Part shown: positions 5,100 to 45,089 of the stretch, in pieces
How positions within the stretch are numbered: the stretch's first letter is position 1
Layout of the letters: every line of letters starts with the position of its first letter
Assembly (NCBI GenBank): GCA_977020255.1
Contig: CDROCS010000358.1
Span: forward strand, 186,001-250,000
Source of the DNA: Obrimoposthia wandeli
Lineage: Eukaryota
Direction of reading: 5' to 3'
Length of the DNA: 64,000 nucleotides
The notes under the pieces: generated by a model
Told to the model about the DNA's origin: nothing
Database searches by the model: none
What the model saw: only the letters and a program-made list of their open reading frames with translations
Translations under genes and position numbers: made by a program

Positions 5100-8000
5100 T
5101 TTTTTCTCTTTCATTAGATGAATTTATGACACTTGGTATTATGCATGTCATTATTGCAACCTGAGGGTTAGTAAAGTTTACGCAAATGGATTGATTTTTT
5201 TGTTATATTTTGTTTTAGCGTTTTAATTTTTATTGTTGATCATATGAAAATGATAGATATTTCAATCAAATTTGCTATCATTATGAGTTCAGCTTGATAT
5301 TTTTTTATGATATGTTTTCTAAATATTTTTGTTGGCTATAATATGTTATATTTTATAAATTGGTAAAAATTTTTAGATTTTTTTTTAAAATTAATTGGTA
5401 CTGTATGTTTTTTTAGTGGTGAGTGGTCAATTATTCTTAGGTATTTTTGTTGTGTATTATGACGTTTATATTTCGATTTTTGTTGTAGTTTCTAGTAAGT
5501 ATTCTTCTATTTTTGTTATTGAGCAAATTCCACACTAAATAGTAAGTTTAAATATTCTCGATTTATAATAATTCTTAGGTTTTCTAGAGTGATTATATTT
5601 TACAAGTATCCAGTATGTGTCCACACAATCTACAAACCATTAGTTTACTTGTAATTATACATTTTCCAAATTGTATTATTTTATTTCGTTGTTTTAAGAA
5701 TTTCCTTGTTAAATTATGAATTGTTTGTGATTTTTCTATGTATTTTTTTGTAATTTTTTTATACACCATTTTTTTATATACAATTTGGTTTCCTTTATAT
5801 TTCTCTTATGATTTTTTTGTCGAAATCGTCTTTATTAGTTAAATTTTCCTTTTTATCATTATTTGCGTTGTGTTTATATGTTTTGCTGTTTCTAAAATTG
5901 TATCTAGATATTTGTGAGTTTTTATATTTCTTTGGTAATGTGTATTATTTTGTAAATGCAATCTGATTTTTTTTGTATAATGTTTATCCACAGATATTTT
6001 CTGTTTCAGTATTTTATCTTTATGAGTTTAGTATAGTTAACATTTGTAATACAGTGTTTATTTTACATTTGATCTCAAAATGTATTTGTGGTTTTTTACA
6101 GTTGAGTTTTCTTCAAGTACTTGCTGATATAAATTTATGTGTACTCTTATTTCTTTTAGTTTTAGGTTATTTTCAAGTTTGGCTGTTATATTGGTTCCGT
6201 TATTACTAATTATTGTATATTGACAATTGTATAGCATATCTAATTTGTGAGATTAAATGAATGTAATTTGTGAGTTGTGATTCATTATTTTACTTCCAAA
6301 TTTTATTTCTGACGATCAAGTTGGTCTGTTGTAATATTATTTATAGTTTTTTTTAATATTTTTTATAAATAACTTAGCTTTTTTAAATGATAGTTTTAGT
6401 CTTTTTCTAACTTATTTTTATGTTTTGGTATTTCTATATACTGTGTTGTGGGTTGAATTAATGTGAGATTAATATACATGTAAGGATCTCTATGGAACAT
6501 AAGGTAGAATGGTGTTTCTCCAGTAGTAAAAGCATCTTTAAAATTTAAATATTTAACTATTAGTACTCTTTTCTATAGTTTAGGTTTTACTATTGAGTTG
6601 TGACTATGATGTTCACAATATGTTATGAATATCTCTATGTTAATAATAAGTGATACGGATTATTATTTCGATTGGGATTTATTGTAAATCAAAAATATCT
6701 AAAACATACGATGATTTGTCACAAATATGATTGTTGTTATTATGTCCAGCTTTTGTTGTATTTATAGTCCAGGTGAGAGTGGGCAGCAACCAGAGATAGA
6801 GAGATTGCAGAGAGGGAAACCGAACGGGAAGAACGGCAGAGCGAGAAGTGTTCCGCAACAGATGAAAGACTGGTCCGTAAGTGAAGGGCAGCCAGTCAGT
6901 TCTGCTGTCTGTGTTAGTAGTCGTCGCCGATGCAGGGGGCAAGGACGACCGATAAAAACTGGTAGGGGAATAATCCCGGATTTGATGATGTAGCTGTCTG
7001 TAAGAGCAACCTTGGGAAGGACCGAGACAGCCTGATCTGTAAGGCTATTTCACTGATCTGATTAAACTTGTTTCGATCGCAGAGCGAACTGAATCAAGTT
7101 AGTCCAGTCGACCTGCGATCGAATCTCAAACAGTGACATTTATCTATCACTTTTATCTCCGGGAACTGACAAAATAAATTTTAAAAAATGTGCACCGAAT
7201 TAATTAAACTTAACATCTATGCGTACTCTACAATCAAAATCTTCTGCATAAATAAAATCTGTTTCTTGGTTTACTTGATATAATTTTGTATTTTTAATTT
7301 TTACCATTTTTAGATCAGCCTCTGTGCATTGATGCAAATCTAATAAAGAATTTTTTTAATATTTTGGGCAGTCATATACTTCTAGAGTATTAATTGGATT
7401 TATCATGTTCATAAATATACATATTGTTAATATTATCTGTATAATTCTCCACAAACTCTGTATAATTTTGTTGAAATTATTTGTATTTTTACAAATTTTT
7501 GATTTTGACTTTTTGGTGTTTTTCGTTTTACTTGTATTTTGATTTCTTTTCTTGTATTTGAGCAGTTTGGTATGTTTTTTTTATTGTTTATTTATTTTTT
7601 TGTAATGTTAGACAACCATCTCTAAATATATCTTCAAATTCGAATTGTAAGTTTGTTTTATCTGTATGTGGTTAATTATTATGGTATTGATGATGTATTT
7701 CTCTGTAGCAAATATCCATTTCTTTAAGTTTTTATTTTTAATAACGCAAGCTCGTCTGTGTTTGGAGTTGTTTCTGCATTTTCAATAGTGTATATAGGGT
7801 TTCTGGGAGTATATTGTTGATCTTTAGTATTGAATTGTACTGCTTTTTGAATTTTTGGTTGCTGTTTTATTGCTGTGTTTCCAAATTGATTCATCATTGT
7901 GTTTGATTTCCACAGTCATCGGTGTTGTGATTTTTCATATTACATATCTTACAAAATTTTGTATTTGTATCTATTTTAATTATTGTAATTATTATTTGAT

Positions 8001-9110
8001 TTATTGTAATTATTATTCCTTGGTAGTGTATTATTACTTTGTCTATTCATTTTTTTCTACAAGTTTTGATTGTATGATTTTGGAGTCCACAATTCATGCA
8101 TTTTCGAAAAGATCTTTGTTTAAATTGTGAGTTTTTAAAATTTCTATTTGACTGATCTCTATAAAAATTATTAGTTGGTGGTCTAAATTGTTGAAGATTT
8201 TGAAAATTATATTGGGTTAAAATTCTGAGTTTGGTTGTAGTTTGGTGGTGTTTGTGGTCGTTATATTTTTTCAAAAGATAGTGCTGAAATCTCGGTTTGC
8301 TATAACATATTTAGTATTGCTTCTACTAGCTGAGCTTTTCCTATAGCTTGTTGAAAGTTTTCCACTTCTAGTAATCCCGGGTGATCTCTGATTTTATTAT
8401 TTAAACCATATAAGAACTGATTTAAAAATAATCATTCTCTTTGTGCTTCCTCAATTTTTGAAAATGATTATGAAGCTAATCGTCGCCATTCGTCTGCAAA
8501 AATGTTTGTGGGTTCTCCTATATGTTGTTCACGTTGTCTGAATTGATTTACATACATTTGTTCTGATTGTACTCCTAAATGTTCCCATGTGTCTTTTTGT
8601 TGCTCAGTTAATCCTCTATAAATAGTTAAGGCAGTACTCTTTAGATATGCCAGGAAAACTCTAAGTTTTTCTGGGTTTGTCCATTCAAATGCCTGAGCAA
8701 ATGAATCGTATATATTCAAGAATTCGGGCAAAGAAGATTTATTGCCATTAAAAGCGTCTAGTGGTACATTCAGTCTATGACCTGCCATCTGAAGTACTTC
8801 GTTTATTTGTTCGTTATTTATTTCTATGTTATGTGTTCTGGTAGTGCCACTGTTTCTGTTGTATCTGAAGAGTTGTCTGAGTCAGACGTTTGTGGTAATG
8901 ATAACTTTCTGTATCAAAAGTTAATGTTAGGTTTATGTCTGATTATTGTTTCAAATGTTTCGATTGTAAGAATGTTTGTTAAACTTGCTGAATCGCTATA
9001 AAATGTTTTATATTTGTTTTGAGAAAGTGATGGAGTTCAGGGAAAAAATCGTTTTGCTTATTTATTTTGTTAAATTAATATATGCAAATTTCTTGTTTCT
9101 TTGTGTTTTA
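5100..9110 (-). pseudogene. Degenerate, internally deleted copy of the Gag-glycoprotein-Pol Gypsy family
   Basis: Minus strand is collinear with 12240-20870. It shows gag (8468-8788, MAGHRLNVPLDAFNG), the signal peptide and LEVYDC glycoprotein start (about 7185-7480), the integrase C-terminus (about 6000-6520) and the post-integrase region; many stops and frameshifts. Confidence 0.85.
6717..7138. mobile_element. Candidate solo LTR of a different family, nested in the degenerate copy
   Basis: Termini TGTCAC...GTGACA, 422 bp, GC-richer than its flanks, minus-strand TATA-like ctataaatac; no matching TSD seen. Confidence 0.5.
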
Positions 9111-9252: not shown

Positions 9253-9283
<31 letters not shown>

Positions 9284-10253
9284 CTATACCTACCAAACTC
9301 ACTCTGTAGGCCTCCATATGAGAAACCTAAAGATATTTTTAAGAAAATCCCACCAAAAATAAATTCTATGGAACGTAGCCTAGATCTCATAAATACTTGA
9401 TAAATTCCATAGAATATATTTTACTTGGCTCTATACACTGCAAGAAATATAGAACGTCTTAATTCATTTCGTACTAAAGAATGTAAACTCTATTATAAGA
9501 TAATGTATAGTGAAATATAGTTTACTCATATATTTTTCATCGAAATCGTTCTGCAATATAACAATAAATTCTTCAAATGGCAACAAATACGTGAAGATAT
9601 AAAAATAACTTAAAATATGAGGACGTCATATATCGAATTTGAACAACGTTTAATTGGCATAGTGCTAAATTCAATTTTTAAAAATTTTATATTCAAAAAA
9701 AACTTTTTTCAAAAATTTCTCTGTGCAAAATATCATCTGCAATATAACTTATTTTAATGCAATAAATTACAAATGAATGTATTCTTGATATAAAATTTAT
9801 AATATATAAACATTAAATTCAATAAATTATTTATATGCAATTGTTTTAATCTTCCTCTTATAAATAATATATTTAAAATCCTTTAAATATATTTAATACA
9901 ATTGTCCGATTTAGTCTAATAAATAGTCACGATTGATTTTAAATTATAAAATCAAATTTGTGCTACAAAATATATGATTTTAATTGTAAACTATCGACGA
10001 ATACTCTAACCGTGTTATATTCAAAAAAATTAAATTAATTTTTTTGATATTGACTAAATGTTTATTTTAAAAGTTTTTTTTAATATTTCTAAACCACATT
10101 AATAAAATAATTAGTATCGTCTTTATAGTCTTTAAAAGAGTTTTCAATTTTTAAAATAAATAAATTTGTTAATGGAATTTTGTGCCATACAAATATTAAG
10201 TTTTGTACCACTGCTTAATATATTCATATTTTGTGCTTATATATTGTAATCCA
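9253..10253. repeat. Dispersed non-autonomous element with (CTAA)7 at one end, copy 1
   Basis: Highly similar to 31630-32453; both copies end at gtaatccac. Confidence 0.8.
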
Positions 10254-10525
10254 CAATTATAGCGCCCTTAATGGGTCTTACTTTTACCGTGCGATAAAGT
10301 TGTGTGTATGTCGATTTTATTTTCATGGAAATCTACACTTTTGCACTCGGTGCATTTCTATTTTGCATTACTGTGTTCGTTGGGCAATTTTATTATTCGG
10401 TCTAAATGGGATTCTAAAATCAACGGTTGAATTAAAACGGTGTTGTGCCATCCATCACAAATTGCCCTAGACTTGCTAATCGATGTTTTGTATTGCGTGA
10501 TTTTGCATTGATGTTATTTTTACCT

Positions 10526-10927
10526 TGTGTGACGATTGCTATTTATAGCAATCGTCGATTTGCCAGACCTGTGTGTTTGATTGGTCCCGGTCTGGCAACT
10601 TTATCTTGTTATCTCTCCCTGACATTTGGGCGATTGCTATTTATAGCAATCGTCGTTCGGATTTATTCTAGTGGAATTTTTAGACTTACAAAAATTTATC
10701 TGTATTTCAATTTCCTAAAAGAAGAATATATTATTTGATTTATTTGAATTTCCCAATTTTCTAAAAGAAGAACATATTATTTGATTTATTTGAATTTCCC
10801 GATTTTTCTAAAAGAAGAATATATTATTTGATTTATTTGAATTTCTCAATTTTCTAAAAGAAAAAACTGATTTTATTTAAAACTGTTCAAACTTCAATTA
10901 CCGCTCAGAAACTATTCAAATATAACA
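10526..10927 (+). repeat. 5' LTR (402 bp) containing a 43-bp tandem repeat
   Basis: Starts tgtgt, ends gaaactattcaaatataaca; shares blocks with 24101-24777. Confidence 0.8.
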
Positions 10928-10928: not shown

Positions 10929-10943
10929 TGGTGAGCTCGACTT
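10929..10943 (+). promoter_or_regulatory. Primer-binding-site-like sequence
   Basis: TGGTGAGCTCGACTT begins 1 nt after the LTR end; cognate tRNA not identified. Confidence 0.65.
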
Positions 10944-12574
10944 AGAGCACGATACGGAAATTAGACTACAGGTCATTTATTTATTTATTTTTGTATAATA
11001 ATATTTAGTTTATTGTATTAGTTTATTATTTAGTTTATAGTGTATTATTAAAAAGAAAATCGAATTGATTTTGTTTTTCTTACATTTGAGTTTTAGTTGT
11101 CCCTTTTTGACATTAAAGAATTATATTTATTTTACATTTATTTAACTTTGATAGGATTCATTTAGTTTCTCAAGTTTTAGCTGTAATTTATTTTTACATT
11201 TAATGTTCATATTTTTGTCTGTTGTAATAATTTAATTGAATTGTTAGTTATCCATTTGATTATTTTTATATACATAGCATTCTAATTTGCTTTAGTTTAT
11301 ATTTTATTACATAATTTGAATATACATAGATTCAAAATATTTCCTTTTGGGTTATTTAAACTCATTTAAAAAATTATCTTAGTTTTACAACTTTACAAAT
11401 ATTTATAATTTCAAAAACTTATAACATTTTATTTTTTGTGTAAATTTGTGATTCGTATAAAGTATCGGGAACTTTTATATTACCTTGATTGATATATTAG
11501 ATATAAAATACTAAAATAATATAGTTGAGGTGTTTGCAGCTGTGCGCACAAGCCTCGTAAGATTAAAAACATAATTTTGTTTCCGGAAACATAGTCGGGT
11601 CCTGTTATCTAATTTTCTTTTATAATTTGAGTCGTGTTGATTATTTTAATCATAAGTTATAGAAAATTTTGAAAAAATTTTAACATTTTCCTTTGAACCG
11701 GTTTACCAGTAGGAAATTCGTTTTTTGAGAACTATAAATTGGAGTGGATTTATCTATTAGAGGCGTAAAAGTAAAATAAATAACTAAAAAGATAATAAAA
11801 GTTAAAATAATCATATAAATATATTTTTGTATAAAAATAAAATTGATCAAAAAATTTAAAATTTTGTCGCAAATTGTCTTGTTTCCCAAGTTACGTCGAG
11901 TGCTATCATATAAAGACTATATACTGGTTGGCGGTGGTAGTGCTCAAAGTGATAAGGGACAGAGATTGTTGAGATAAATTTTTGAGTCTTGTTATTGTTC
12001 TAAAAAATTAAAAAACAAAATAAAATAAAACTTCGGAAAGATAAATTTTCTCCAGAGATTTTCAGAGAGCGTGTTTTTAATATTGATAAGAGAGTTTGAT
12101 TTTGAGATTGACTAAATAACTTTTACGAATTCCTCCGAAATATTTTTAGTTTCAGTACGCAGTACGCATTTTTCATTTGTGCAATATTTGATTTTGAAAC
12201 TTTAAATAAATTATTAATAACACAAACCCAAAAATCTATCACAAAAACAGACACACAAAATAAGTAAACAAAAACGTAGCGCTAGCCTTCACTGGAGAAG
12301 AATTCAAACAAGATTAGTTAGAACAGACTCCAGTGAAAAAACAATTCAAAGACCCAAATCACAAATCAGTTTTACAACAAATAACGATTTACTTACACAG
12401 ACTTCCCCACTCTCAGAACATCTGGACCTAGCTTTAACCTCAGATACAGAGAGTTTACCTTCACCACAAACATCTGACTCGGATAGTTCGTCAGAAATAA
12501 CGGAAGCAGTAGCCGTCCCAGAACCACCTATTGTACAGATAAACAACGAACAAATAATCGATCAACCTCAAATA

Positions 12575-14060
12575 ATGGCTGAACATAAATTAAATGTTCC
12601 TTTAGACGCTTTCAATGGCGATAAATCCTCATTACCCGAATTTTTAAATAGATTTGATTCATTTGCTCAAGCATTTGAATGGACTAATGAAGAGAAACTT
12701 AGGGTTTTTCCAGCGTATTTAAAAGGCACTGCCTTAACAATTTATAGAGGATTAAACAATGAACAAAAAGACACATGGGACCATTTAGTTCAGAATTTTC
12801 AAAATATGATTTTAGGAACCCAATCAGAGCAAAATTACTTAAATCAGTTTAGACAACGTGAGCAACATTTAGGAGAACCCACAAATATTTTTGCAATTGA
12901 ATTAAGACGTTTAGCCCTAAAATCATTCCCTGGAATTGAGGAAGTTTTAAGAGAGCGCTTACTGTTACATCAGTTTCTACATGGATTAAATAATAAAATC
13001 AAAAATCATCCAGCTCTACTAGAAGTAGAAAATTTTCAGCAAGCTGTAAATAAGGCTCAACTTGTAGAAACAAGATTAAACATGTTACAACAATCTGAGG
13101 TTTCAGCATTAACCTTTGAAAAAATACAAAGACCAACAACACCACCAAATTTCAATCAAACTCAAAACTATAACCCAAATACACAATCTAATTACCAAAG
13201 CCAACAACAATATACACCACCGACAAATAACTTTTATAGAAATCAAACAAACAGAAACTATACAGACTCACAAATTACACAAAGACCTTTCCAGAAATGT
13301 ACAAATTGTGGACTACAAAATCACACAATAGAGAATTGTTATAAAATAACCAACAACAAATTTTGTAGATTTTGTAAAAAAGACAATCATACTATTGAAA
13401 CTTGCCGAAAACTGTTATACAGACAAAGTAATAATATACAACCACAAAATAATAACTTTAACAATCCTAATAATAATTTCAAAAATACAAATAATAATTT
13501 TAGAAGCCCATATAATAATTTCAATAATCAAAATAATCAAGCTAAATATTTTAATACTAATACAAAATTTTGTAAAATTTGTAATATGAAAAATCACAAT
13601 ACTGATGAATGTAGCAAACTAAATACAATGATGAACCAATTTGGTAACACAACAATAAAACAACAACAACAACCACAACCACAGATTCAAAAAACAGTAC
13701 AGTTTAACAATCAAAATCAACAATATGCTTACAGAAACCCAATACATACTATTGAAAACACTGATATAAATCAGGAAACAGAAGAAGTTGCATTGATGAG
13801 ATTAAGACAACAAGAAATAGATAATCGCTATAAAGAAACACATCAGCAATACCAAAACAATGAGCAAAACACAAATAGTACCAACTCTCAATCTGAATTC
13901 GGAGAAATATTTAGAAACGGTTGTCTAACATTAGAAAAAAGAACACAAATAAGTACAAAAATAAATCAAACCACTCAAACACAAGATAAAAAATCGAAAA
14001 ATAAAAATAAACGAAAATCACCAAAAAATAGTAAAAATTCAAATCTTAAAAATACATATA
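12575..14060 (+). CDS. gag: Gag: capsid domain plus three CCHC zinc knuckles and Asn/Gln-rich linkers
   Basis: AFNGD..LPEFLNRF..AQAFEW..EKL, FRQREQ; knuckles CTNCGLQNHTIENC, CRFCKKDNHTIETC, CKICNMKNHNTDEC. Confidence 0.9.
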
Positions 14061-14068
14061 ATTTTAAC

Positions 14069-15950
14069 AAAATCATCCAGAATTTATGGAAAATAATTCA
14101 AATAATATTTATGATATGTATAATTACAAATATAATAAAACCTATAAATGCTCTTGAAGCATATGATTGTTCAAAATATAGTATTCAAAATAAATATTCA
14201 CTAATGGATTTACAACAATGCGCCGACGCAGATCCAAATGAAGTAAAAGTTAAAACCACCAAGTTATTTCATGTATACCAGGAAACAGATTACATAAATA
14301 CAGAAGTTTTCGAATGTAGAGTACATGTGGAAACATTCATAACATATTGCGGACAACACAGCCATAATTCAATTGTTAAGCCAGCATTAGGAAAAACACC
14401 AATAATTGTGGACGCGTTAAATTGTAAAGATGCTTTTGCAACAGGCGAACTGAGAATAGATAGAGAAATAAAAGTAAAAGCAATAAAAAACAAAATAATA
14501 CAACAAATGATTACGGTGGTAGGAACTATCAAATCTGACGGAGAATGCACAACAGGATCATACGTCGTAATGGGAGTTAAACAAAGTGGTTTAGTAGTTA
14601 TAAAAAACTTTGAGGTAGAACTAAGAACATTTAAAGCAACATTTGATCCATCTACAAATACCATGGTGACTATGCCTTTTTGTGCAGCAAATATCGGATA
14701 TTGTAACACAGGATCTTCAATTTTATACTATAAGGTAAAAACAGACCAATGTAAATTAATACTACTAAAATCAGAAAATTTCCAAATAATTCAAGGTCAA
14801 AGATTCAAAGATGATCCAGAGCTAGATCAACGAATTCCAAAAAATATACTTAAAAATATAGAACTAGAAAAATACAAAAAACATCAACTCCAACTATTTT
14901 AATGTCAACTGAACAAGGTTCAGGTATGCGATTTATTAAAAGAAAGAGGAATCCCGATGTGGACACTCTATTTATACAACTAATTATAAAGGAATATATC
15001 TAAGTAAAGAAAAAATTTATAATGCAAAAACTACACCAACAAAATTTGATATAAAAAATTACGATTATTTCAATAATAAATTAGATAATTTTTATCACAA
15101 AGGATTAATGACAATAGAAGCTATTTATAGAGAAACAATAATGAATGACTGTAAATTAAATCAAGAAATTTTGAAAACAAAACTAGCAATTATTGCTACA
15201 AATCCAGAATTAATAACACCATTATTACCGTTACCAGATGGTACTTTCGGAAGAGTAATGGGAGAGGTACTATATACGTATCAATGCCAAAAAGTAATAG
15301 TTAATATAAGAAATCACAATAAATGTACCAAAGAATTGCCAATTTCATACAAAAATCATTCATTATTTGTAGAACCAATCACCAGAATAATACTTTTTAA
15401 CACATTCAGCATAAAAGAAATAAACTGTTCAAACATAATGGCACCTCATTATAAAATTTCAAAAGATATCTGGATAACATTACCAAGAAGAGACATAGTT
15501 GCTCAACCACTAAAACTACAATTAACTAATCTAAAAAATGACATAGAAATAAATCCAGACAATGAACTAAATACAAAAGGCATTTACATACAAGAAGATA
15601 TAGATAAATTAAGAAAAGAAATTTTATTTCCTCAAATAAGATCACGAATTTTAACACAAATCATAGAAAGATCAGTACCAGACGGAATTAGCCGTCCTGA
15701 TTATGATTTATTACTTTCTCCAAACCATTACATAAAAGCTACAAAAAATACAATGTCAAAAATATGGGGAAAATTTTTAATATTTGGACAAGCATTTTCT
15801 GGACTTGTAGGAATATATGCACTACAAATATGCTTTAAAATACTATTGAGTCAAATTTTATCCACATACTATATTTATAAAGTTGGAGGATTAACATGGA
15901 AACTAATATTAGGATGTTTTCCATTTTTGGAAAAATTTCTTATATTTAAT
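14069..15950 (+). pseudogene. env: Chuvirus-like (class III) envelope glycoprotein in frame with Gag; two frameshifts near 14880 and 14940
   Basis: Internal signal peptide, then LEAYDC...QC, ECRVH...YCGQHSHNS, CGHSIYTTN, NDCKLNQEIL, GRVMGEVLYTYQC, and a C-terminal hydrophobic region WGKFLIFGQAFSGLVGIY; pattern recalled for chuviral G. Confidence 0.8.
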
Positions 15951-16139
15951 CATCTTCAAAATACTGTAAACGCATTATCAAACGAAATGCGAGAAACAAA
16001 TTTACAAAAAATAGTAGACAATAAAAATAAAGAGAATACAGAATCTGCACAATACCCCGATTTAGAAAGATATAAAGAAGAAATAATAGTTCAAAAATCA
16101 ACTGCACCAACAATATATACTATAAATCAAATGGATAAT

Positions 16140-16793
16140 GATAGACGACCTTATGTAAAAGTTGAAATAAATGAGTATAAATTAAAAGCTTTAATTGACA
16201 CAGGATCAAGCGTAACAGTTTTGGACGAGTCTTTCTTAAAACCACACCAAATATTACTACTTCTCACAGATAATAGTCAAATAACAGCAGCAAACGGTCA
16301 ACCCGTAAATATTATTGGTAAATTAGATTGTATTTTTAAAATAGGAGATAAATTTATAAAAATACCTACTAGAATAATGAAAAATTGTCCATGTCAGATG
16401 ATAATAGGAATAGATACATTGAGGAAATTAGGAAACAATTTTCACTTCGACTTTGAGAAAAATCAAATTAAAGACATTTACAGACCAAACGCTAAAAGCG
16501 AATACGAATTGGAAATAAAAGGAGATATCATCCTTCAACCTAGAACAGAAACAATATTACAATTAGAAACTAACATAGTTACAGAAAAAGACATCTTATT
16601 CGAACCTTATAAATATCAACAGGAAACATTAAATTACGTTCTACCAAATATAATTTGTAAAATAAGAAATAACACAATACCTATCAGAATACTAAATGGA
16701 GACATAAACGAGATTCATCTAAAAGTAGGAACACGCCTTGGAAAAATAAGTGTTATAGAGAATATAGAATTAATTAATAATGAAAAAATATAA
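16140..16793 (+). CDS. Aspartic protease and post-protease domain, in the same ORF (15108-16793) as the glycoprotein C-terminus
   Basis: RPYVKVEI...ALIDTGSSVTVL (DTG at 16197), IIGID; one in-frame TAA at 16791-16793 separates it from RT. Confidence 0.9.
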   Translation, partial: DRRPYVKVEINEYKLKALIDTGSSVTVLDESFLKPHQILLLLTDNSQITAANGQPVNIIGKLDCIFKIGDKFIKIPTRIMKNCPCQMIIGIDTLRKLGNNFHFDFEKNQIKDIYRPNAKSEYELEIKGDIILQPRTETILQLETNIVTEKDILFEPYKYQQETLNYVLPNIICKIRNNTIPIRILNGDINEIHLKVGTRLGKISVIENIELINNEKI

Positions 16794-18200
16794 GACAATT
16801 CCACCGTAAAATTTGAAAATATTAGATTAAATGATTATGAGAAATCAAAACTAAAATCATTGATGGAGAAATATGACGTGATTTTTTGCAAAAATGAATA
16901 TGACCTAGGACGAACAGATTTAATTAAACATAACCTTCCGTTAACTATTAATACAGCAATCAAACAACGACCTTACCGTATCCCATACGCTTACAGAGAA
17001 GAAGCTCAAAGACAGGTAAAAGGAATGTTAGAGAATAATATCATAAGAAGAAGTTTTTCAGCATGGACATCTCCGGTTGTTTTGATAAAAAGAAAGATGG
17101 TTCACTAAGATTTTGCGTAGATTACAGAAAATTAAACGAGATCACACATAAAGACACATATCCGCTTCCAAGAATCGATGAAATCTTAGATAAACTAAAA
17201 AATGCAAAAATATTTACAACCTTAGATTTACAAAGTGGATATTGGCAGATAGAAATAGATGAATCAGATAAAGAAAAACAGCATTCTCAACAGGAGAAGG
17301 ATTATACGAATTTAACGTTTTACCTTTTGGATTAACAGGTGCTCCAGCAACATTTCAGAGGTGCATGAGCCACATTTTAATGGACGCCGATCATGTCATG
17401 GTTTATATCGACAATATTCTAATTTTTTCAAAAAATTTTGAAGAACATTTAAAAGATTTAGAAAATGTATTTCTTAGATTAAAAATAGCAGGTTTAAAAT
17501 TAAAACCAAAAAAGTGTGAATGGATGAAAGACAAAGTGAATTATCTAGGTCACGCAGTATCAGCAAAAGGAATTCAACCAGATGAAAGTAATATAGAAAA
17601 AATAAAGAATTTTCCAATTCCAAAAACAGTAAAAAATATACAAGAATTTTTAGGACTTGCAGGATATTATCGTCGATTTATCAGAAACTTTGCACAAATA
17701 GCAACACCATTAAACAAACTTATTAAAAAGGATGAAAATTTTGAATGGGAAACGGAACAACAAGAGTCATACGAGTACTTAAAACAAAAATTGATAGAAA
17801 AACCTATATTGATATATCCTAATTTCAACAACTCGTTTCTAGTAATGACTGACGCAAGTGGATACGCGTTAGGAGCAGTACTAGGACAACAGGATAATAA
17901 TGAAAAAGATCATGTGATAGCGTACGCAAGCAGAGGTCTTAAAAACACGAAATAAATATTCAAACAAAAGAAAGGAATGCCCCCGCTATTTGTTTCGCAA
18001 TGGAACATTTTAAACATTACTTATTAGGTCGAAAAGTTCACGTTTATACTGATCAAAGACCATTACAGTGGCTACTAAATCATAAAGATACAACATCTAG
18101 ATTAATGAGATGGGCGTTAATTCTCCAAAAATATGATATTGAAATTAAATATAGAAAAGGTAAATCAAACGCCAATGCAGATTGCCTATCTAGAATAAGA
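16794..18200 (+). pseudogene. pol: Reverse transcriptase and RNase H, frameshifted
   Basis: [47 protein letters not shown] in place of YxDD (17404-17415), TDASGYALGAVL, ANADCLSR. Confidence 0.92.
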
Positions 18201-18479
18201 GAAGAAGTAAATGTAATAAATTCCAATGACACCGAATTAAATATTTTTACAATAATCAAGGCTCGATATGATGATAAAGTAATCACCGATCTTCAAAGCA
18301 AAGATACGGAATTACAACAAATAATTAAGTATATCACCATCAATCAAGTTCCAACAGATGAAAAATTAAGAAAACATTTAAAAAAAACTCATGAATCTCG
18401 CTATAAATTCAGTAACAATATTTTACATTATTTAAACGATAAAAATCTGTACTCACTAGTTATACCTAAAGAAATACAA

Positions 18480-19560
18480 TGACAATTACTCCTTCAATAT
18501 CATAACGGAGCTTTAGGAGGACATCTTTCAACAAAAAAGACACATTCAAGATTAAATTTAAAATATTATTGGATTGATATGAAAGAAGATGTAAAAAATT
18601 GGTGTAATACTTGTGAAATATGTCTTAAAAGAAAAAACACCTTACGTACCACAAAGATACCTTTAAAACCAATACCGTATCCATCGGCCCCCATGGAAAC
18701 TGTTGCCATGGATGTAATGGGGCCATTACCTGAAACACCCCGAGGAAATCGATATATAATAGTATTTTCAGATTATTTTACAAGATGGCCAGAGGCTTTT
18801 CCAACACATGATCATAAGGCTGAAACCATCGCGAAGGTTTTAGTCGAAAAAATTATTTTTACTTTCGGTGCACCCCGAAAGTTATTAACCGACAAAGGTC
18901 CTGAATTTATAAATAATGTATTAGCATCAATAGCTGAAATCTTTCACATAAAAAAGATCAATACAACACCATATCACCCTCAAACCGACGGATTAGTAGA
19001 AAGATTTAATAGAATTCTCGAAGATATGATGGCATCATATACAAACAACAACCAAACAGATTGGGATTTGCACATACCCCCATGCCTTTTTGCATATAGA
19101 ACATCAGTACATGCATCTACAGGAGAAACACCTTTTTACCTTATGTTCCTCAGAGATCCGCAAATGCCTATTGACCTAACATTACTACAACCTACTACAC
19201 AATACCTAGAAATACCTGAATACAAAATAGAAATTAGAGAAAGAATAAAACTAGCATTTGAAAAGGCTAAATTATTTGTAAAAAACATACAAGAAAATTA
19301 CAAAGAATATTATGATAGAAGAACTAAGCCATCAAATATAAAAAGCGGAAGTAAAGTGATGATTCACAATCCACAAATTAATGTAGGATTGTCACACAAA
19401 TTATCAAAACCATACAAAGGACCATATACAGTTATTAGTACCAATGGAACTAACATAACAGCTAAACTCGACAATGAACTAAAATCAAAAGAAATAAGAA
19501 CACACATAAATAGATGTCGACAAGTACCAGAAGAGAATACAACAGTAAAAAGCCATAAAT
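18480..19560 (+). pseudogene. Integrase (HHCC zinc finger, DDE core, GPY motif)
   Basis: H..ALGGH...WCNTCEIC; AMDVMGP, LTDKGPEF, GLVERFN; KPYKGPY; a stop lies immediately upstream. Confidence 0.92.
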
Positions 19561-19619
19561 ATAATTTGAGATCAAACACAAAAAATACAGTTTTACAAAT
19601 GTTACCAATACAAGATATA

Positions 19620-20930
19620 CAGAGAAAAAATATTAAAAACAAAAAATCTAAATGGAATAAGGCAATAGTTATATCAATAAAGGAATTTTCAAAAATTTTA
19701 ATAATATTCGCAATTTATCTCTTCATAAGTAAAAACGTGCAAGGAGCAAATGCTACCAAACTAAATGATAAAAAACTAACTATAAAAAATGTTATAAATA
19801 AACATGACTCGACAACACATCTTATAAAAAATTTTGGTTTAATTACGATAATACCAGAAATCACATCTATAAAGTTAAAAATCTCGCTCTTTATAAACAA
19901 AACTGAAATATACAAATTACACAAAAGACAGAAAACAAAACATAACAATAATAGGAATAAAATCACGAAAATATACAATACCATTCTTAAGAGATGAAAC
20001 ACAATATGAAATTAAAATAAAATCAAATACACAAAACATTACACTTTATCAAAGAACTATAGAAACTCACATATACCTAGCATCAATATTAGAAACAACA
20101 GCGAAATATATATCAAAACATAAAATAATGATAAAATGGGAATTTCAACTAAAAATAGACGACTTAGATAAAGCCCTCATTAGAATTAGATATAGAGGAC
20201 ATAATATTAATTTTTGGAAAAACTCAGAAAAACAATTAGAAAAAACACAAACTAAAACAAATTTAACCATAGAAAATATAAGATATCCAGAGAGAATAAT
20301 AATACAATATAGAGAATGTGTAATCACAAATAAACCAATGATGTATAGAAGTTGGGGACACATTTTGAATACTTACAAAAACATAACTACTTTAGAAACA
20401 ATAGGAAAAAAGATATCAAAAATGTTTCAACCAACTCTTTTTGCGGGAGTTGGCTAATAATAAAAATAAAAGAACCTATATTAAAATCAACAAAAGTAAT
20501 GAAAATATATTTAACACAATATACAACAAAAATATTTAAGAAAATATCATCAATCATTTCTAAAGAAAACATACAAAACCAGTCAACCTTTTTAAAAAAT
20601 ACAATAAATTCATCAAAATCGATGAACTTAAAACATATAATATTTTTTAGTCAACGAAATCATTCACAAAACATATATCATACAGAATTTAAGATAATAA
20701 TAGCAATAATAATTGAAATATTTAACATTTTAATAAAAGTAATAATAAAAATAAAAACTTTTAAAAGAATTAAAACTAAAAAATCATTTCACTTAAACAA
20801 ACTGTATGGACCACCAGGTCCACTCATAACATCCCTAATACCAAGTGGTACAAATTCATCCAATACATCAATAGATACGGTAATCAAGAACTATAAACAC
20901 AAAGAGAAAAACAACACTGATTTGTAAAAA
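19620..20930 (+). pseudogene. Post-integrase region beginning with a second signal-peptide-like segment; fragmented
   Basis: Basic stretch then KILIIFAIYLFISKNVQG in frame with integrase; homologous sequence in the minus-strand copy at 5100-5950. Confidence 0.45.
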
Positions 20931-21739: not shown

Positions 21740-22876
21740 ATGGAACCCACAAGCACGAATCCTCATTTGAACTGGCAGGTGGTGCCGCGGGGAAAGAGAG
21801 AGAAGTCGGTCCAGTTAGCAGAACAACGTCCAGAAATGGCGAAAATGGCTAAGTTCCTTTATGGAAAAATAAGACAGTTTGGAACAAGGTATTTCCATAA
21901 CCATTACGGAATAAAGCTTTTTGACAATCAGACCCAGCTTCCAAATAGCATTAAGTTAAGAGACACCCCAAGACAAAGTATAATTCTCAACATAAATAGT
22001 AAAAAGCCAACGGAAAAAAGACTGTTTGAGTTGATGAATTTCTTACCAATATGCACGGACATTGAGATTCACGTAGCAAAAGGCCGTGGATTTTTAAAAC
22101 ACAGGAAAAGCAAACATTTTTCTATCCTTCTCCTGCAAAACCACTCTTACAGATTAATGAGACATCAAATAACTCCCGATTTGATGATTCGTTTTTCGGG
22201 TGGAAATAACATATTTTTCATGGAGCAAAATGTGCGACCTAATCCCGTTCAAGTCTGCCATTTGAATATCATACCCTACAATCCTCAAATATTTTTTGTC
22301 GATTGTGAAATGGTAGTAAAAATGAACAAACAACCCACCCTAGCTAGCATTACAATAATGAATAGAAGCGGACAGATCGTGTTGGATACGAAATGCAATA
22401 GCAGAGACAGAATCAGGAATTATGTGACAAGAATAACGGGCCTTAATGAACGGAAGTTAAGAAACCAACCTGATTCTGTCGAAGTGTTAGAACGTGTCCA
22501 ATCCTTGCTAAGAGACAATATTTTCGTAGGGACGGGAATATCCAACGATCTCAAAGTTTTAGGATTACAAAAAAACGATTTTTCGCACACGGTTGATCTA
22601 GGGGCAACACAAACTATTCAAATGGAAATGAACCGTAGAGAACAAGCCGGACTTGCTCGAATGGTTTCGTGGTATTTCAATAAAGAAATACAAAAGAATA
22701 CCCACTCTAGCCTCATAGACACGCAATGGACCCGAAAAATTTTCCTCCATAAAGAACAAGAACTGCTAAAAGAATGTGGTTTGACCGTCTCTTTTCCCCG
22801 CGTAACCAACGCTAATTTTCCTGTCTTAACCGAGGTTATAGACCTCACCTCCTCTGATTCTGAGGACAACATTTAA
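21740..22876 (+). CDS. DEDDh 3'-5' exonuclease (REX4/ISG20-like), 378 aa
   Basis: ExoI FVDCEMV, NYVTRITGL, ExoII FVGTGISNDLKVL, ExoIII HSSLIDT; uninterrupted ORF. Confidence 0.88.
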   Translation: MEPTSTNPHLNWQVVPRGKREKSVQLAEQRPEMAKMAKFLYGKIRQFGTRYFHNHYGIKLFDNQTQLPNSIKLRDTPRQSIILNINSKKPTEKRLFELMNFLPICTDIEIHVAKGRGFLKHRKSKHFSILLLQNHSYRLMRHQITPDLMIRFSGGNNIFFMEQNVRPNPVQVCHLNIIPYNPQIFFVDCEMVVKMNKQPTLASITIMNRSGQIVLDTKCNSRDRIRNYVTRITGLNERKLRNQPDSVEVLERVQSLLRDNIFVGTGISNDLKVLGLQKNDFSHTVDLGATQTIQMEMNRREQAGLARMVSWYFNKEIQKNTHSSLIDTQWTRKIFLHKEQELLKECGLTVSFPRVTNANFPVLTEVIDLTSSDSEDNI

Positions 22877-23254
22877 AGTGGTAGGAAAATTTATGATTTT
22901 AGAAAATGTTTCGAGAAAAATCAGAGTGAACAGAAAATAAAAAAAAGTAAACACTACTAGAGTAATCGTGTTTATGGCTGATTTTTATCGAAAACATAAA
23001 AATAATTTTATAGCATGAATGAATCCATATTTTAAATGATGACAATTTTTTTTAACTATGTTTAACAATGATTATTTTAACAATTAAACAAACATCTTTG
23101 TTAAATATAAAACGTCAGAGGTCTGACTTTGTATACTCCCATAGGATTGTTGGGTCTTTAATTAAAATTAATTAATTAAATTACAGTCAATTTAAATTGA
23201 CATTTTTTAAAATTATCTAAAGTGCCCACAATTAGGGAGGTTTATCAAATTTCA

Positions 23255-23306
23255 GCCTCCGACGGGTTGTTAGCCCGTTTCGCCCTGCCGGGCTCATCAG
23301 GAAGGC
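23255..23306 (-). ncRNA. Type I hammerhead ribozyme
   Basis: Minus strand: GCCUUC-CUGAUGA-GCCC(GGCA)GGGC-GAAA-CGGG(CUAACAA)CCCG-UC-GGAGGC. All core nucleotides and three helices present; GUC cleavage triplet. Confidence 0.9.
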
Positions 23307-23329
23307 GGCGAAAAAAGCGGTTGATAAAA

Positions 23330-24015
23330 GGGATTCTTATCATAAAAATATTACCGCCCAGTAGCAGCGACCTATTCCCTTCATCATCATCCGGAGAGGC
23401 AACAAACTTCAATCATCCCATCTCGGAAGCAGTTGCCTCCCTGACAACAAATTTCCCGCCTGCTCAACCGCCCCTGTGTATCCTTCACTACCCTATTTCT
23501 ACTACGTGGCGGAGATGTCCGGCATCTCACTGTTCAACAGCTACCTCATGGCCTACCCTATCTGCATGGCGGTCTTGGAGCTTAGCTTATTCAGTTGCCT
23601 TAACATGTTCGCCATCAACCTGGGCATCGTCATCTCTCTTTTCCTCCTCTTCCCGCACAACTCTTGGAGATGGCAGGCGAGACCCCGACAGCATGCCTAA
23701 CTTTGACAATAATGTATGCAACAGCAGTCTCTCCGGTCAACGGCTCAGACAGCGACACTGACCGGCTGCCATAATCCTGGTGGTCCAGCGGTGACTGCAT
23801 TGAACAACTGTACAATCCGGCCATGAATCTACACACAAAAACTTTGGTGCTGTCTTTAGTGTCGGTGTGTGGTGTGTATATCCTCTCTCCTCTCTCACAA
23901 TCTCTATATTATTTTTCGTACAATCACTGTTTTTCCCTCTCAAAATTATCCAGTGTGAATGTGTGTTGACTGAAATCTCTCCTGTACTGTCATTTCCCCC
24001 TTTTCTCCACAACAT
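23330..24015 (-). pseudogene. Decayed GC-rich antisense ORF with a Cys/His cluster
   Basis: One frame continues through isolated TGA/TAG stops: LCVDSWPDCTVVQCSHRW...GQCRCL..., EEEEREMTMPRLMANMLRQL. Confidence 0.4.
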
Positions 24016-24088
24016 AGTCCATCATACCATGCAATAAGACAGTGTTGAGATGACCAGCGATGTAGAGGATTGTAATATGTGGACTGTT

Positions 24089-24097
24089 AAGAGAAGG
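24089..24097 (+). promoter_or_regulatory. Polypurine tract
   Basis: aagagaagg 3 nt upstream of the 3' LTR start. Confidence 0.6.
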
Positions 24098-24100
24098 CTA

Positions 24101-24777
24101 TGTGTAAAGATCACGGATTATTAATGTTGCAGCTTCTTCCTTACACATGTGAATGTGATTGTGTGTTGATACTTCATACCTGGACCTGTGTGTCTGATTG
24201 GTCCCGGTCTGCCAACTTTATCAACTTTCTCTCCCTCAATGGACATCGTCGATTTAGATGCCCATTTGACATTTGGACGATTGCTATTTATAGCAATCGT
24301 CGATTGGATTTAGATCAGTCAATTCTCCTTATTACAAATTTGTTGTCTTTTCAGTTTTCATTATCACACAAATTATTTTATGAATATATTTCTAAAAGAA
24401 GAACAAATTATTTTATGATCTAAGAATACATTATTGGAAACTATTCAAATATAACATTCAGTTTTCATTATCACACAAATTAATTTATGAATATATTTCT
24501 AAAATAAGAACAAATTATTTTATGATCTAAGAATACATTATTGGAAACTATTCAAATATAACATTCAGTTTTCATTATCACACAAATTAATTTATGAATA
24601 TATTTCTAAAAGAAGAACAAATTATTTTATGATCTAAGAATACATTATTGGAAACTATTCAAATATAACATTCAGTTTTCATTATCACACAAATTATTTT
24701 ATGAATATATTTCTAAAAGAAGAACAAATTATTTTATGATCTAAGAATACATTATTGGAAACTAATCAAATATAACA
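24101..24777 (+). repeat. 3' LTR including a 4 x 107 bp tandem array (24350-24777)
   Basis: Starts tgtgt, shares gacctgtgtg..tgattggtcccggtct and the 26-bp palindrome with the 5' LTR, ends aaatataaca. Confidence 0.8.
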
Positions 24778-26270: not shown

Positions 26271-27320
26271 ATTTCGCATTGATTAAAAATTGTAGAGTGT
26301 AACCATATCACCTAAATAGTTCTTTAGTTAATAAAATAGTTTATTTAAGAGTACGCTACAATTGTGATTAATAATAAATATCGTGAATTTAAACTTTAGT
26401 ACTGACCGTCCCTAACTATTCAGAGGGTTACAGTCGGAACTACTTGAGTACGGTTTAGTTTTTGCAAATTTCTGGTCATGGTTTGGCGCGTCTATTATTG
26501 AAACTAAAATCAAATTCGGTCTTATACAATCAGCAACACGACAATAGTTTTAAGGAATTTCGAGTTATCATTCATCAACTGGCTTCAATAATTTATTTGA
26601 ATATTTTTCTATTACTTTATATACGTGTATTTTATAAGTCATATTTGACGTATATTAGAGTAAAGCCGTGTAAAAAATTTCTAAATAAACTTTTAAGTTG
26701 ATTGAATCTTTTGATTAAAGTTTGGTAAATTCTTCAGCCTACTTGTCATTAAATCAAAAATTAAATTTAAAAAATTGTAAGGTTTTATTTCTCAAAGATT
26801 TTCATGCAAATGATCTTTAATTGTTCCATATTACTTTTATAAAAAATACAATTTACTACGAATTTATTAATAAATAAGAAGTATTATAAAAATATTTAAA
26901 TGAACTCTTATTAAATATATTTAAAATTTTAAAAATGTCTAATAAAATAATTTAACTATTTAAAATTATTATAAAATATAGAAATAAAACAACCAATAAT
27001 AATATTTTAAAGTTAAAATAATTAGTACTACATTTTATTTATCTAAGTTATAATATACTACTTTTATTTTTAGTGAGTGTAATTGTTATTGATATTATTT
27101 TTTGATTAATTATAATAATTGTTATATTTCAATTTTAAAGTTTACATTTCAAAGTTAGACTTTTTCTGAAAATCTAAAGTTAGTTATTTTGTCAATAGTT
27201 ATTTCGACATAGAATCGGAATATTAGGTTATTTTTAATTATCCAATTTATTCCCATTTGCTTTATTTATTTGTTATTCCTTCTAAATGTTTTGTTAATTT
27301 CGATATTCCAATTTCAGAAT

Positions 27321-28579
27321 ATGGACGATCTCTGGACTCACCTCTCCGATAATGGACTACACACAAACGTCGTAAATATCCCTAACAGTTGTTTGTGCAT
27401 GTTATGCAACTCGATCATGCGACATCCGGTCTCTACCAAATGTGGATGCGTCTTTTGTGAGCACTGCATACGTGACTATCTTCTCGATGACCGCAAGCCG
27501 TGTCCGGGATGCCTCAAAGAAAACGATATCGCACAAATTGAATACACCAACGACATCACAGAGTGCAAGACGTCCAGTAGGGAAATCTTGAGACTTATCA
27601 CGGTGTGTCCTCTCGATGGATGTGAGGAGTCATTTGAGTTGCGAGCGCTGCTAGAACATCTCATCTCGTGCTCCATGATGAAAAATGGCTGCATGTTCAA
27701 GTCAATCGGATGTAGCACCGGTAATATGAACAGTACACAGTTGGAGGTGCATTTGAGTGAAGAATCAATAGAGCACTATAAACTAATTGTTGAAGCGTTA
27801 TGTGAGTTGAAGAACGGTTATGAAGCAATGCAGGTGGAGCGGAAATCTGTGAATGCTGTGAGGATTGAGATGTCTCAGATGAAGGAGGACTTTGCCGTGC
27901 TGAGGGCTGAGATGATGACAGCGATTGGGATTATGGCGGGAGATTTGAATGCGATCAAGGCCGAGAATGTGGAACAAAGTCAGAATCTTATGGAGGCAAT
28001 GAGGAAGGATATAAATGAAATTAAAATGGAATCAGATTTAAAAGAAAGAGAATTTAAGAATTTGAGAACAGAATTAGATAGCCTTAAAGAACAAAATATC
28101 GAATTGAATCAGGTTCTTCTGAACCACGAATCTGTTTTAGAGAATGTGAAGGAAGAAAAGGAAAATTCTTCTGAGAGGACAAATGTATTGGAAACAAAGC
28201 TCCATGAAGTCGTCTTGATAAGTGAAGCGATGAAATGCGAATTAGAGATTCTAAGAAAGGAAATGGTCGATTTGAAAACTTCGTTGACAAAAAGTGAGGT
28301 AAAGGCCGTGGCAGATGAAGCCTTTCCAGAGTGGAACCAAAGAATGGTAAGCTGAGTTTTCTTATATCTAGAATCTTCGCGAGGCATTCAAATATTTAGA
28401 TATTCAATTAGTTTAAGCTAAATTACAAATGTGCTAAATCTTTTGTAGAATTCTTGGTATTCGAACTATTTAAAGCTAACTGTATTATACATTTTGTATT
28501 CCAGGAGAAGCAATTACAGCAAGGAGGTGACCAAGCGAATGATAAAACGATCCAAATTAGGCGCAGAGCTGAATCGATG
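27321..28579 (+). CDS. RING / TRAF-type zinc finger / coiled-coil protein, paralog 1 (exons 27321-28346, 28505-28579; 3' end unresolved)
   Basis: C-x2-C-x11-C-x-C-x2-C-x2-C-x11-C-x2-C RING, CP..GC...L.EHL..C...C.F...GC, long heptad region; GT-AG phase-0 junction. Confidence 0.8.
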
Positions 28580-31629: not shown

Positions 31630-32453
31630 CTAACTACTATACCTACCAAACTCACTCTGTAGGCCTCCATATGAGAAACCTAAAGATATTTTTTAGAAAA
31701 TCCCACCAAATAAATTCTATGGAACGTGGCCTAGATCTCATAAATACTTGATAAATTCCATAAAATATATTTTACTTGGCTCTATACACTGCAAGAAATA
31801 TAGAACGGCTTAATTCATTTCGTGCTAAAGGATGTAAACTCTATTATAAGATAATGTATAGTGAAATAGTTCACTCATATATTATTCATCGAAATCGTTC
31901 TGCAATATAACAATAAATTCTTCAAATGACAACAAATACGTGAACATATTTTTTAAAAAATACAAATGAATATATTCTTGAGATAAAATTTATAATATAT
32001 AAATATTAAATCCCACAAATTATTTATATGCAATTGTTTTAATCTTCCTCCTATAAACTTTATATTTAAATACTTTTAAATATATTTCATACAATTGTCC
32101 GATTTAGTCTAATAAATAGCAATACGTCACAATTGATTTTAAATTATAAAATCCAATTTGTGCTACAAAAAATATGATTTTAATTGTAAACTATCGACGA
32201 TTTCTTTAACCGCGTTATATTCAAAATAATTAAATAACTTATTTATATATTTACTAAATGTTTCTTTAAAAAGGTTTTTTTAATATTTCCAAACAACAAT
32301 ATTAAAATAATTAGATCGTCGTTTTAGTCTCTAAAAGCGTTTTTAATTTTTTTAAAAATAAACTTTTTTAATGAAATTTTGTGCCTTACAAATATTAAGT
32401 TTTGTATCATTGCTTAATATATTCATATTTTGTGCTCATATATTGTAATCCAC
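31630..32453. repeat. Dispersed non-autonomous element, copy 2
   Basis: Matches 9277-10253 with an internal deletion of about 150 bp. Confidence 0.8.
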
Positions 32454-44395: not shown

Positions 44396-44527
44396 ATTTT
44401 TGATTATTATTTTGTCTTTATTGATTATGTTATAAAATTGTCTAAATACTACCTCGTCATTTTAATAAATTTTTGATTAATATTTTTTCGTTATAAACAA
44501 CGGAATTTTCTACAAATTTGGGTAATT

Positions 44528-45016: not shown

Positions 45017-45089
45017 ACAATTCTTCTAATTGGAGGAATTCATTATTAAAATTTTAGAGTTATTTACAAATCAGCCTTTTGATTGGAGG

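Follow-up and report, generated by a model that had tools for sequence, protein, structure and literature searches.

Within the 64,000-nucleotide stretch of Obrimoposthia wandeli DNA that we analysed (the window; contig CDROCS010000358.1, positions 186,001 to 250,000), we found an LTR retroelement that, with all its parts taken together, is very probably a degenerate copy from a Ty3/Gypsy (Metaviridae-type) family that multiplied recently and belongs to the GAG-ENV-POL kind already in the literature. This reading includes a one-ORF domain order, a membrane topology deduced from its sequence and an old capture of its glycoprotein, G. The domain order, the single frame in sister copies, the Gypsy ancestry, the LTRs and the 4-bp target duplications were established directly, as was the fold class on a predicted model. 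The ORF of sister copies encodes, in this order, Gag, a signal-anchor, a class III fusogen, a membrane anchor, protease, RT, RNase H, integrase, a second signal peptide, a second ectodomain and an anchor, which amounts to a polyprotein of roughly 2,800 aa. The element reaches from the 5' LTR remnant near 10253 to the end of the 3' LTR at 24777, or about 14-15 kb (Table 1). The original prediction had placed it at 12575..19997; the ATG at 12575 does lie in a stop-free frame, but the end was set too short, as the sister-copy coding frame extends beyond 19997 to a stop equivalent to window position 20927. The nearest relatives of the element are metagenome contigs.

Table 1. Features of the element, in window positions
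Feature	Position	Strand	Remarks
5' LTR remnant	10253..10927	+	ends ...TATAACA; truncated upstream; LTR type differs from own 3' LTR
Primer-binding site	10929..10941	+	complementary to tRNA-Trp(CCA) 3' end
Gag ORF	12221..14902	+	stop-free frame, ATG at 12575; holds Gag, hydrophobic stretch and LEAYDC
Gag	12575..14071	+	capsid-like region, three Cys/His knuckle-like motifs, Asn/Gln-rich linker, basic stretch
Internal signal-anchor/signal peptide	14072..14152	+	hydrophobic stretch 14072-14128, Kyte-Doolittle 1.87
G ectodomain, predicted class III (chuvirus G/herpes gB-type) fusogen	14153..15773	+	PF24664; reading frame interrupted at two places, near 14854-14881 and 14940-14946 (frameshifts)
G membrane anchor region	15774..15950	+	one clear hydrophobic segment and one or two marginal ones
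Retropepsin protease	16140..16440	+	DTG at 16197; PF09668 E 1.5e-9, PF13975 E 7.6e-9; in frame with G
RT, RNase H, integrase (H2C2, core, GPY), Ty3/Gypsy type	17039..19500	+	Pfam RVT_1, RT_RNaseH, Integrase_H2C2, rve; in broken pieces
Second type I membrane protein, predicted	19665..20927	+	in frame after integrase
Its signal peptide	19665..19745	+
Its ectodomain			about 315 aa, with N-glycosylation sequons
Its anchor	about 20697..20753	+	followed by basic tail
Accessory ORF, DEDDh/RNase T-type exonuclease	21740..22876	+	PF00929 E 4.6e-10; between pol and 3' LTR
3' LTR	23148..24777	+	TGT...ACA; 107-bp tandem array near end

Gag, the signal region and the start of the LEAYDC ectodomain share one stop-free frame, as originally proposed. 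In Pfam searches, Retrotrans_gag was matched on sister copy L007 (E 2.7e-4, below the curated cut-off) and the window's Gag frame itself gave no Gag family match. The net charge is +6 before the hydrophobic signal stretch and 0 after it; of the 16 relatives that carry the AYDC motif, 14 have a hydrophobic segment above the threshold ahead of it, and a signal-peptidase site is predicted directly before LEAYDC (14153). The G family PF24664 (Monjiviricetes_fusion) was matched in two pieces, with profile positions 4-225 in the Gag frame (E 4.4e-29) and positions 266-636 in the frame 14940-16793 (E 1e-58), in which the aspartyl protease follows. Both nearby frameshifts expected in G could be placed (Table 1), and its C-terminal part and membrane region are in frame with the protease, again as expected. 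The G anchor has a Kyte-Doolittle hydropathy of 1.62 in the window and of 2.01, 1.51 and 1.69 in L007.

The predicted model of a sister-copy G ectodomain had a pLDDT of 93.6 and was matched to chuvirus G (Foldseek E 7e-37, TM up to 0.85) and to herpes gB (E 6e-13). In a wide structural search with the same predicted model as the query, the top 11 rows held herpes gB (Z 11.0, rmsd 7.6, 399 aligned), rhabdovirus G, thogotovirus Gp and GP64. According to this model, the sister-copy ectodomain folds as a class III fusogen with chuvirus G as the closest match and herpes gB as the next, which bears out the claim of a chuvirus-like glycoprotein. Searching the PDB with the C-terminal half of G as a single sequence gave nothing significant; a 109-sequence profile of this half retrieved herpes gB rows only (best E 0.002).

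Pol has the order PR-RT-RH-IN, as in Ty3/Gypsy, by its Pfam matches. It is damaged in the window by stops at 16791 and 18480 and by frameshifts near 17090, 17275 and 17943, and its RT catalytic motif is altered. The RT nests with those of G-carrying Pol relatives in an 18-row clade (90/85), with an inner 12-row clade supported at 99/96. As an outgroup we used three near-identical copies of one BEL family, in a tree without Copia or retrovirus rows; the branch leading to the BEL RTs had a length of about 6 changes per site. Rooting with BEL put this long branch inside the G clade, probably a long-branch effect, and the clade was therefore judged on the tree without BEL.

The family is young and present in high copy number, with a median mismatch of 1.4% over 188 pairs and all 71 scored matches at 98-100%. 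Four sequencing runs of a single study contain this DNA, and no RNA run was among those listed. We fetched 20 copies as the best matches to a piece comprising the C-terminal half of G and the protease, and continuity from G to protease in 20/20 is partly the result of this selection. A Gag knuckle and the signal were within one ORF in 15/20 copies and the two halves of G in 12/20; breaks between the halves occurred in 7 of the 19 copies that have the region. The frame was stop-free from the last Gag zinc knuckle through G into the protease in 7/20 copies, and continuous from the Gag start in four of these 20, which confirms that Gag, G and protease can form one ORF. The breaks in the window are therefore private to this copy or assembly errors. 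The same interval was interrupted or partly missing in the other 13 of the 20 copies, so that either a large share of the family is dead or indel errors are present in the assembly. G is present in relatives too: it stands ahead of PR-RT-RH-IN in one protein in all 10 PF24664-tagged Pol relatives among the 120 listed, although the length filter used favours fused forms. A continuous gag-env-pro-pol ORF reportedly exists also in the nematode elements of Sacco and colleagues.

Two other origins of the element have next to no probability. The element might have been a BEL/Pao (Anakin-like) retrotransposon, a group in which chuvirus G is known from mosquitoes (PMC7642597) and of which many copies are present in the same genome; however, no BEL/Pao family was among the Pfam matches of the window or of a sister copy, the RT shows 40-69% identity to those of Gypsy elements and is distant from BEL, and the best solved-structure relative of Pol is Ty3 Gag-Pol (E 1e-98). 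The RT tree groups the element with Gypsy, not with BEL/Pao, in line with the original prediction, and rules this origin out. Equally improbable is that a chuvirus glycoprotein gene, as an endogenous viral element, entered an ordinary Gypsy copy locally and recently, or that the assembly is chimeric here. The mosaic state of the window copy, with a 5' LTR remnant unlike its own 3' LTR, would fit such an event, but the in-frame junctions are found in many copies, in an older, 69-77% identical relative at 5113-8932 and in distant relatives, and G shares only about 20% identity with its viral counterparts. These multi-copy and cross-species comparisons exclude it. In a G tree whose rows were chosen by similarity to the query, 18 polyprotein G rows lay on one side of a branch and 25 stand-alone G rows on the other (SH-aLRT 100), and sister pairs within the polyprotein group matched the RT tree. 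This concordance points to an old capture, after which G descended with pol. Hence, 'inserted', as the glycoprotein was first described, does not hold if read as a recent capture: polyprotein-embedded G sequences form a deep group of their own that tracks the RT tree, and the sequences point to an ancient capture.

The window copy is a mosaic at its ends. Another copy has two LTRs that both resemble the 5' LTR remnant, at 97% over a stretch of 145 nt and at 89% over one of 74 nt, whereas the window's own 3' LTR shares with the remnant only two stretches, of 131 nt (69%) and of 30 nt (100%); the first 170 nt of the 3' LTR match the 5' LTR starts of two other copies at 92-93%. TGT...ACA ends with 4-bp target duplications were present in both copies examined (the truncated 5' LTR of the window leaves no duplication readable), and the LTR pair of one copy was 98.6% identical over 951 bp. 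A reading in which the element has no 5' LTR, from bases ahead of the primer site that differ among copies, was ruled out by two copies with matching 5' and 3' LTRs. Identity with Troyka was also rejected, as that element is described with CG...CG ends and 3-bp duplications. The primer-site motif directly follows TATAACA in other copies as well. The tRNA end complementary to it occurs 51 times in the genome, versus 0 for a reversed control; ARAGORN called tRNA-Trp(cca) in a sampled tandem array and none in three other loci. Directly ahead of the 3' LTR, where a polypurine tract would be expected, three copies share a conserved stretch of 30 nt that is not purine-rich. The accessory exonuclease ORF, missed in the original prediction like the second membrane protein, had 105 scored matches at 92-100%. 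Five of these share contigs with element copies at a spacing of 6.6-6.8 kb, as in the window, and exonuclease-homologous DNA was present in both 3' flanks fetched.

The predicted second membrane protein is frameshifted in the window near 19924-19943 and 20406-20448, and its hydrophobic segments have Kyte-Doolittle values of 1.92 and 2.49. In sister copies, one ORF joins integrase to the second signal (13/20), the signal to the ectodomain (11/20) and the ectodomain to the anchor (10 of the 17 copies that reach it). The anchor frame is 53% identical in an older inverted relative (E 1.7e-11), and hydrophobic segments follow the integrase in 14/18 clade relatives versus 4/98 other Gypsy Pol proteins. 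Matches of the ectodomain to FN3 were weak, with atlas values of 0.90-0.91 and 149-156 shared features versus 170 typical of true family members; Pfam fn3 reached E 0.097 on a window piece and was absent on L007. A single-sequence model gave no confident fold (pLDDT 36.5), no homologue was found among longer proteins, and BLASTP against the tails of relatives gave no match. We found no description of such a second membrane protein after the integrase in the texts searched.

HSV gB requires gD, gH and gL, and the entry mechanism of gB-carrying errantiviruses is given as unknown (PMC13524379). The second membrane protein could help cell entry as a putative attachment partner of the gB-type fusogen; in frame, common in the clade and rare in the other Gypsy Pol proteins sampled, it is a concrete candidate for such a gB partner. 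A wider model, which we hold to be rather unlikely as a whole, is that the clade encodes two envelope proteins per polyprotein: a conserved gB-type fusogen mid-chain and, behind the integrase, where env classically stands, a type I membrane protein that is exchanged rapidly. This second protein would be FN3-like in our element, Ig-like in P0064 and P0085 and of unrelated type in other members. Its role would be to bind the receptor or to trigger the fusogen, which would make it the retrotransposon counterpart of herpesvirus gD/gH-gL, and Pol would enter particles as a loop held at the membrane by both of its ends.

Hydropathy and charge agree with the topology suggested in the original prediction. 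Gag would remain cytosolic while the internal signal directs G into the ER lumen; signal peptidase would cleave before LEAYDC, leaving Gag tethered via the signal stub, and the G anchor would bring the chain back to the cytosol. Both ends of Pol would then be fixed to the membrane, with the chain looping through the cytosol until the element's protease releases it. Pol would be packaged by membrane co-localisation with Env instead of by Gag-Pol fusion, in a 1:1:1 stoichiometry, and G, along with the second glycoprotein, would be exposed on the particles that bud. The passes themselves are predicted from hydropathy, and with up to three segments in the G anchor, an even number of them would place Pol in the lumen. 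It is also conceivable, if somewhat unlikely, that an element of the same ancestry and gene order now moves only within cells and makes no infectious particle, with G and the second membrane protein as tethers or relics. The high copy number and the breaks between the G halves fit this, and the authors of PMC13524379 state that env-mediated transmission is unproven for most such elements; the recent spread of the family could have been purely intracellular. Against it, among relatives that share only 29-46% identity, the G ectodomain still has the cysteines of the family and is confidently predicted to adopt a complete class III fold, where a relic would be expected to shrink, although the single ORF obliges G to stay in frame for Pol synthesis.

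The gag-env-pol order, which the original prediction did not know from a Gypsy element, has been published, and on its own our finding adds one young, high-copy family to a known arrangement. In Nematoda, Bryozoa and Platyhelminthes, Chary and Hayashi (PMC13524379) catalogued errantiviruses of GAG-ENV-POL order whose env is of the chuvirus/gB type; these share with ours the Ty3/Gypsy Pol, the Chuviridae-like gB-fold env, the gene order, LTRs and multiple copies at about 98% identity. This family, compared by description only, may or may not be one of their entries. A second membrane protein after the integrase is not described in the text consulted, the words 'fibronectin', 'immunoglobulin', 'single ORF' and 'accessory' are absent from the main text, and the tRNA-Trp primer end is not among the ends listed. 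Env ahead of pol in a metavirus was described for nematode endogenous retroviruses (Sacco et al. 2022, as cited in PMC13524379), which are presented as nematode elements. In the planarian giant Gypsy element Burro/GYPSM1, a single polyprotein likewise has env in frame, after gag and ahead of the protease (Arkhipova and Yushenova 2019, PMC6431247), but Burro exceeds 30 kb and encodes about 4,900-5,100 aa; no Pfam match to its MATH, BIR, Bcl-2 or ankyrin cargo was found on the window or a sister copy. Burro env matches arthropod and fish mononegavirus glycoproteins and was likened to gypsy/baculovirus F in that paper, whereas the env here is of class III. Close relatives P0001 and P0124 (G 41-46% identical) resemble Burro in their order, with a Bcl-2-like domain (a match below the curated cut-off) ahead of env and then the protease, and P0001 carries ankyrin repeats; these G and Pol relatives suggest that Burro env may be class III instead of F-type. 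Anakin of mosquitoes has the same glycoprotein family in an LTR retrotransposon with a BEL/Pao, not a Gypsy, backbone (Dezordi et al. 2020, PMC7642597). Finally, the rotifer elements Vesta and Juno also have an accessory DEDD exonuclease ORF 3' of pol (Rodriguez et al. 2017, PMC5408684); theirs is a DEDDy ORF3 that replaces env, whereas the exonuclease here is additional to env.

Two neighbouring stop-free frames of the window sequence each matched part of the Pfam family Monjiviricetes_fusion (PF24664), and Pfam placed RT, RNase H, and integrase on later pieces. This upholds the original prediction that Gag runs into a chuvirus-like glycoprotein (G) and, after two nearby frameshifts, into protease. 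Gag has weaker support than G: Retrotrans_gag reached E 2.7e-4, below the cut-off, on a sister copy, and Cys/His knuckle-like motifs were seen in the sequence. Because G, pol, and tail carry breaks and RT has an altered catalytic motif, the window copy is, judged by its sequence, dead.

Features of the window
Feature	Position	Detail
First stop-free frame	12221-14902	ATG at 12575; PF24664 profile 4-225, E 4.4e-29
Second frame	14940-16793	PF24664 profile 266-636, E 1e-58; aspartyl protease immediately 3', same frame
Frameshifts in G	near 14854-14881 and 14940-14946	
Signal-like segment past integrase	19665-19721	KD 1.92
End of post-integrase frame	20927	
3' LTR	23148-24777	
Older inverted relative	5113-8932 (-)	69-77% identical
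AT-rich dispersed repeat	9276-10254; 31629-32453	79-99% between both
RING/TRAF ORFs	27213-28355; 33098-34303	AT-rich repeats ahead of each
Polinton/Maverick-like cluster	44477-54234	A32-type ATPase PF04665, E 1.3e-6; integrase-like ORF, weak rve_3
DNA polymerase B-like ORF	46207-48849	
Major capsid protein-like ORF	49804-50994	

We searched the 1.35-Gb genome with the piece holding the C-terminal half of G and the protease; all 71 matches scored, out of 26,962 candidates, were 98-100% identical. Among the top 20 other copies by match to this piece, the Gag knuckle and signal stretch shared one ORF in 15, both G halves in 12, and G anchor and protease in all 20, the last partly owing to how the copies were selected. 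In 7 of the 20, no stop interrupted the stretch that links the last Gag knuckle, G, and protease, and 4 of these were open from the Gag start. Break positions mostly differed from copy to copy. Pairs of copies (188 compared) had a median mismatch of 1.4% and showed 1.6 gap openings per kb, so part of the breaks may be assembly errors.

The 951-bp LTRs of one copy were 98.6% identical; those of a second matched at the start (169 nt, 90%) and end (493 nt, 99.6%) and differed in the middle. Both copies had TGT...ACA ends and 4-bp target duplications. The primer site matched tRNA-Trp(CCA) by complementarity; a tandem array of ∼37 such tRNA genes with ∼207-bp spacing lies at G000:C5734:143176-151119 (L036). 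What remains of the window 5' LTR differs in type from the 3' LTR, so this copy is probably recombinant; the AT-rich dispersed repeat adjoins the truncated 5' LTR. Across copies the coding core is ∼98% identical, the 5' leaders are of at least three unrelated types (first 1.9 kb, L001-L020; L029-L032), and LTR interiors and ends vary even where the leader is common, with short tandem repeats often present. These sequences suggest frequent LTR/leader exchange between subfamilies. The older inverted copy is a relative of the same element, internally deleted and pointing away from the main copy; it retains gag, the G start, the integrase end, and the post-integrase tail.

Using the natural 489-residue ectodomain piece of the sister copy L007 as a query, we retrieved 1,118 representatives with E of 0.001 or lower. 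Polyproteins ranked highest (29-46% identity); below them came stand-alone proteins of ∼650 aa (22-31%), whose named members come from insects. An AlphaFold2 model of this ectodomain (109-row alignment) had a pLDDT of 93.6. In Foldseek, chuvirus glycoproteins headed the viral models, with Tacheng tick virus 4 at E 6.8e-37 and Wenling crustacean virus 14 at TM 0.85 (rmsd 3.1), and herpes gB headed the solved structures (E 6.2e-13). A wide structural search put gB (Z 11.0, rmsd 7.6, 399 aligned) ahead of rhabdovirus G, thogotovirus Gp, and GP64. The predicted chuvirus likeness thus held, and the modelled ectodomain has a class III fusogen fold. Its sole lower-confidence loop (residues 221-240) contains a polybasic stretch, a possible convertase site.

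The best solved relative of Pol was Ty3 Gag-Pol (E 1e-98), and BEL/Pao RTs of this genome lay very far from the element in the RT tree, confirming its Gypsy identity. PF24664 occurred in 10 of the 120 Pol relatives listed, always ahead of PR-RT-RH-IN in one protein. An RT tree of 37 rows, which left out eight rows of the BEL-including tree (three BEL, five other Gypsy) and three more, held an 18-row clade (90/85) with the query, 11 G-before-Pol proteins, and six rows whose ORF does not include G. Three of the six pair with G-bearing proteins on equal-sized contigs (P0030/P0001, P0042/P0002, P0028/P0124), which suggests that each pair is the same element. In the G tree, which is unrooted and names no donor, a branch with SH-aLRT 100 divided 18 polyprotein rows from 25 stand-alone ones, and the RT tree shows several of the same sister pairs; by these phylogenies, G has therefore long been inherited together with this Pol lineage. 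One relative, P0040 (HBK71150.1), is a full gag-env-pol Gypsy polyprotein that was deposited under a Flavobacteriaceae MAG as a hypothetical protein; the bin is probably contaminated with eukaryotic sequence. The relatives P0002, P0029, P0043, P0060, and P0030 carry several aspartyl protease domains in tandem, in some cases 3' of integrase, and P0030 has an extra signal peptide and anchor pair ahead of its protease.

By hydropathy, a signal-like segment flanked N-terminally by basic residues precedes AYDC, and one strong and one or two marginal hydrophobic segments precede the protease. In the simplest reading, Gag would be cytosolic, G luminal with its N-terminus freed by signal peptidase, and Pol cytosolic, suspended from the anchor of G. 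Since signal peptidase would split Gag from Env-Pol, Pol would enter particles via co-localisation at the membrane. Insertions that are recent and carry target duplications show that Pol has functioned, which favours an odd number of membrane passes.

The frame continues past the integrase GPY motif into a signal-like segment, an ectodomain with 8 N-glycosylation sequons in 340 residues of L007, and an anchor (KD 2.49) followed by a basic tail. It was continuous across successive junctions in 13/20, 11/20, and 10/20 copies, and into the anchor in 10/17. A chance AT-rich frame could produce such an extension; the 53% identity of the anchor frame to that of the older inverted relative speaks against this. 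At least one post-integrase hydrophobic segment was present in 14 of the 18 clade proteins and at least two in 10, compared with 4 and 0 of 98 other Gypsy Pol proteins (those of 103 with integrase found, mostly gene models of one arachnid and not independent). The tails are non-homologous between subclades; two are Ig-like, and an FN3 assignment of the ectodomain is only a lead. That the element encodes two glycoproteins we consider rather unlikely, and it is the part worth pursuing.

Elsewhere in the window, two ORFs of the Polinton/Maverick-like cluster resemble protein-primed DNA polymerase B and major capsid protein by reading, without a matching Pfam family. The RING/TRAF ORFs are paralogous and intronless, with a RING finger, TRAF-type zinc finger, and coiled coil.

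In the literature searched and the available portion of the PMC13524379 text, its figures and Sacco et al. 2022 apart, we found no mention of a membrane protein past integrase. The accessory DEDD exonuclease of the element has a precedent in rotifer elements (PMC5408684). The gag-env-pol order, unfamiliar for Gypsy in the original prediction, is real and well supported but already published: Chary and Hayashi, following Sacco et al. 2022, describe GAG-ENV-POL Ty3/gypsy elements with an HSV/gB-type, Chuviridae-like env in Nematoda, Bryozoa, and Platyhelminthes, and their table has 9 flatworm and 10 bryozoan entries (PMC13524379).
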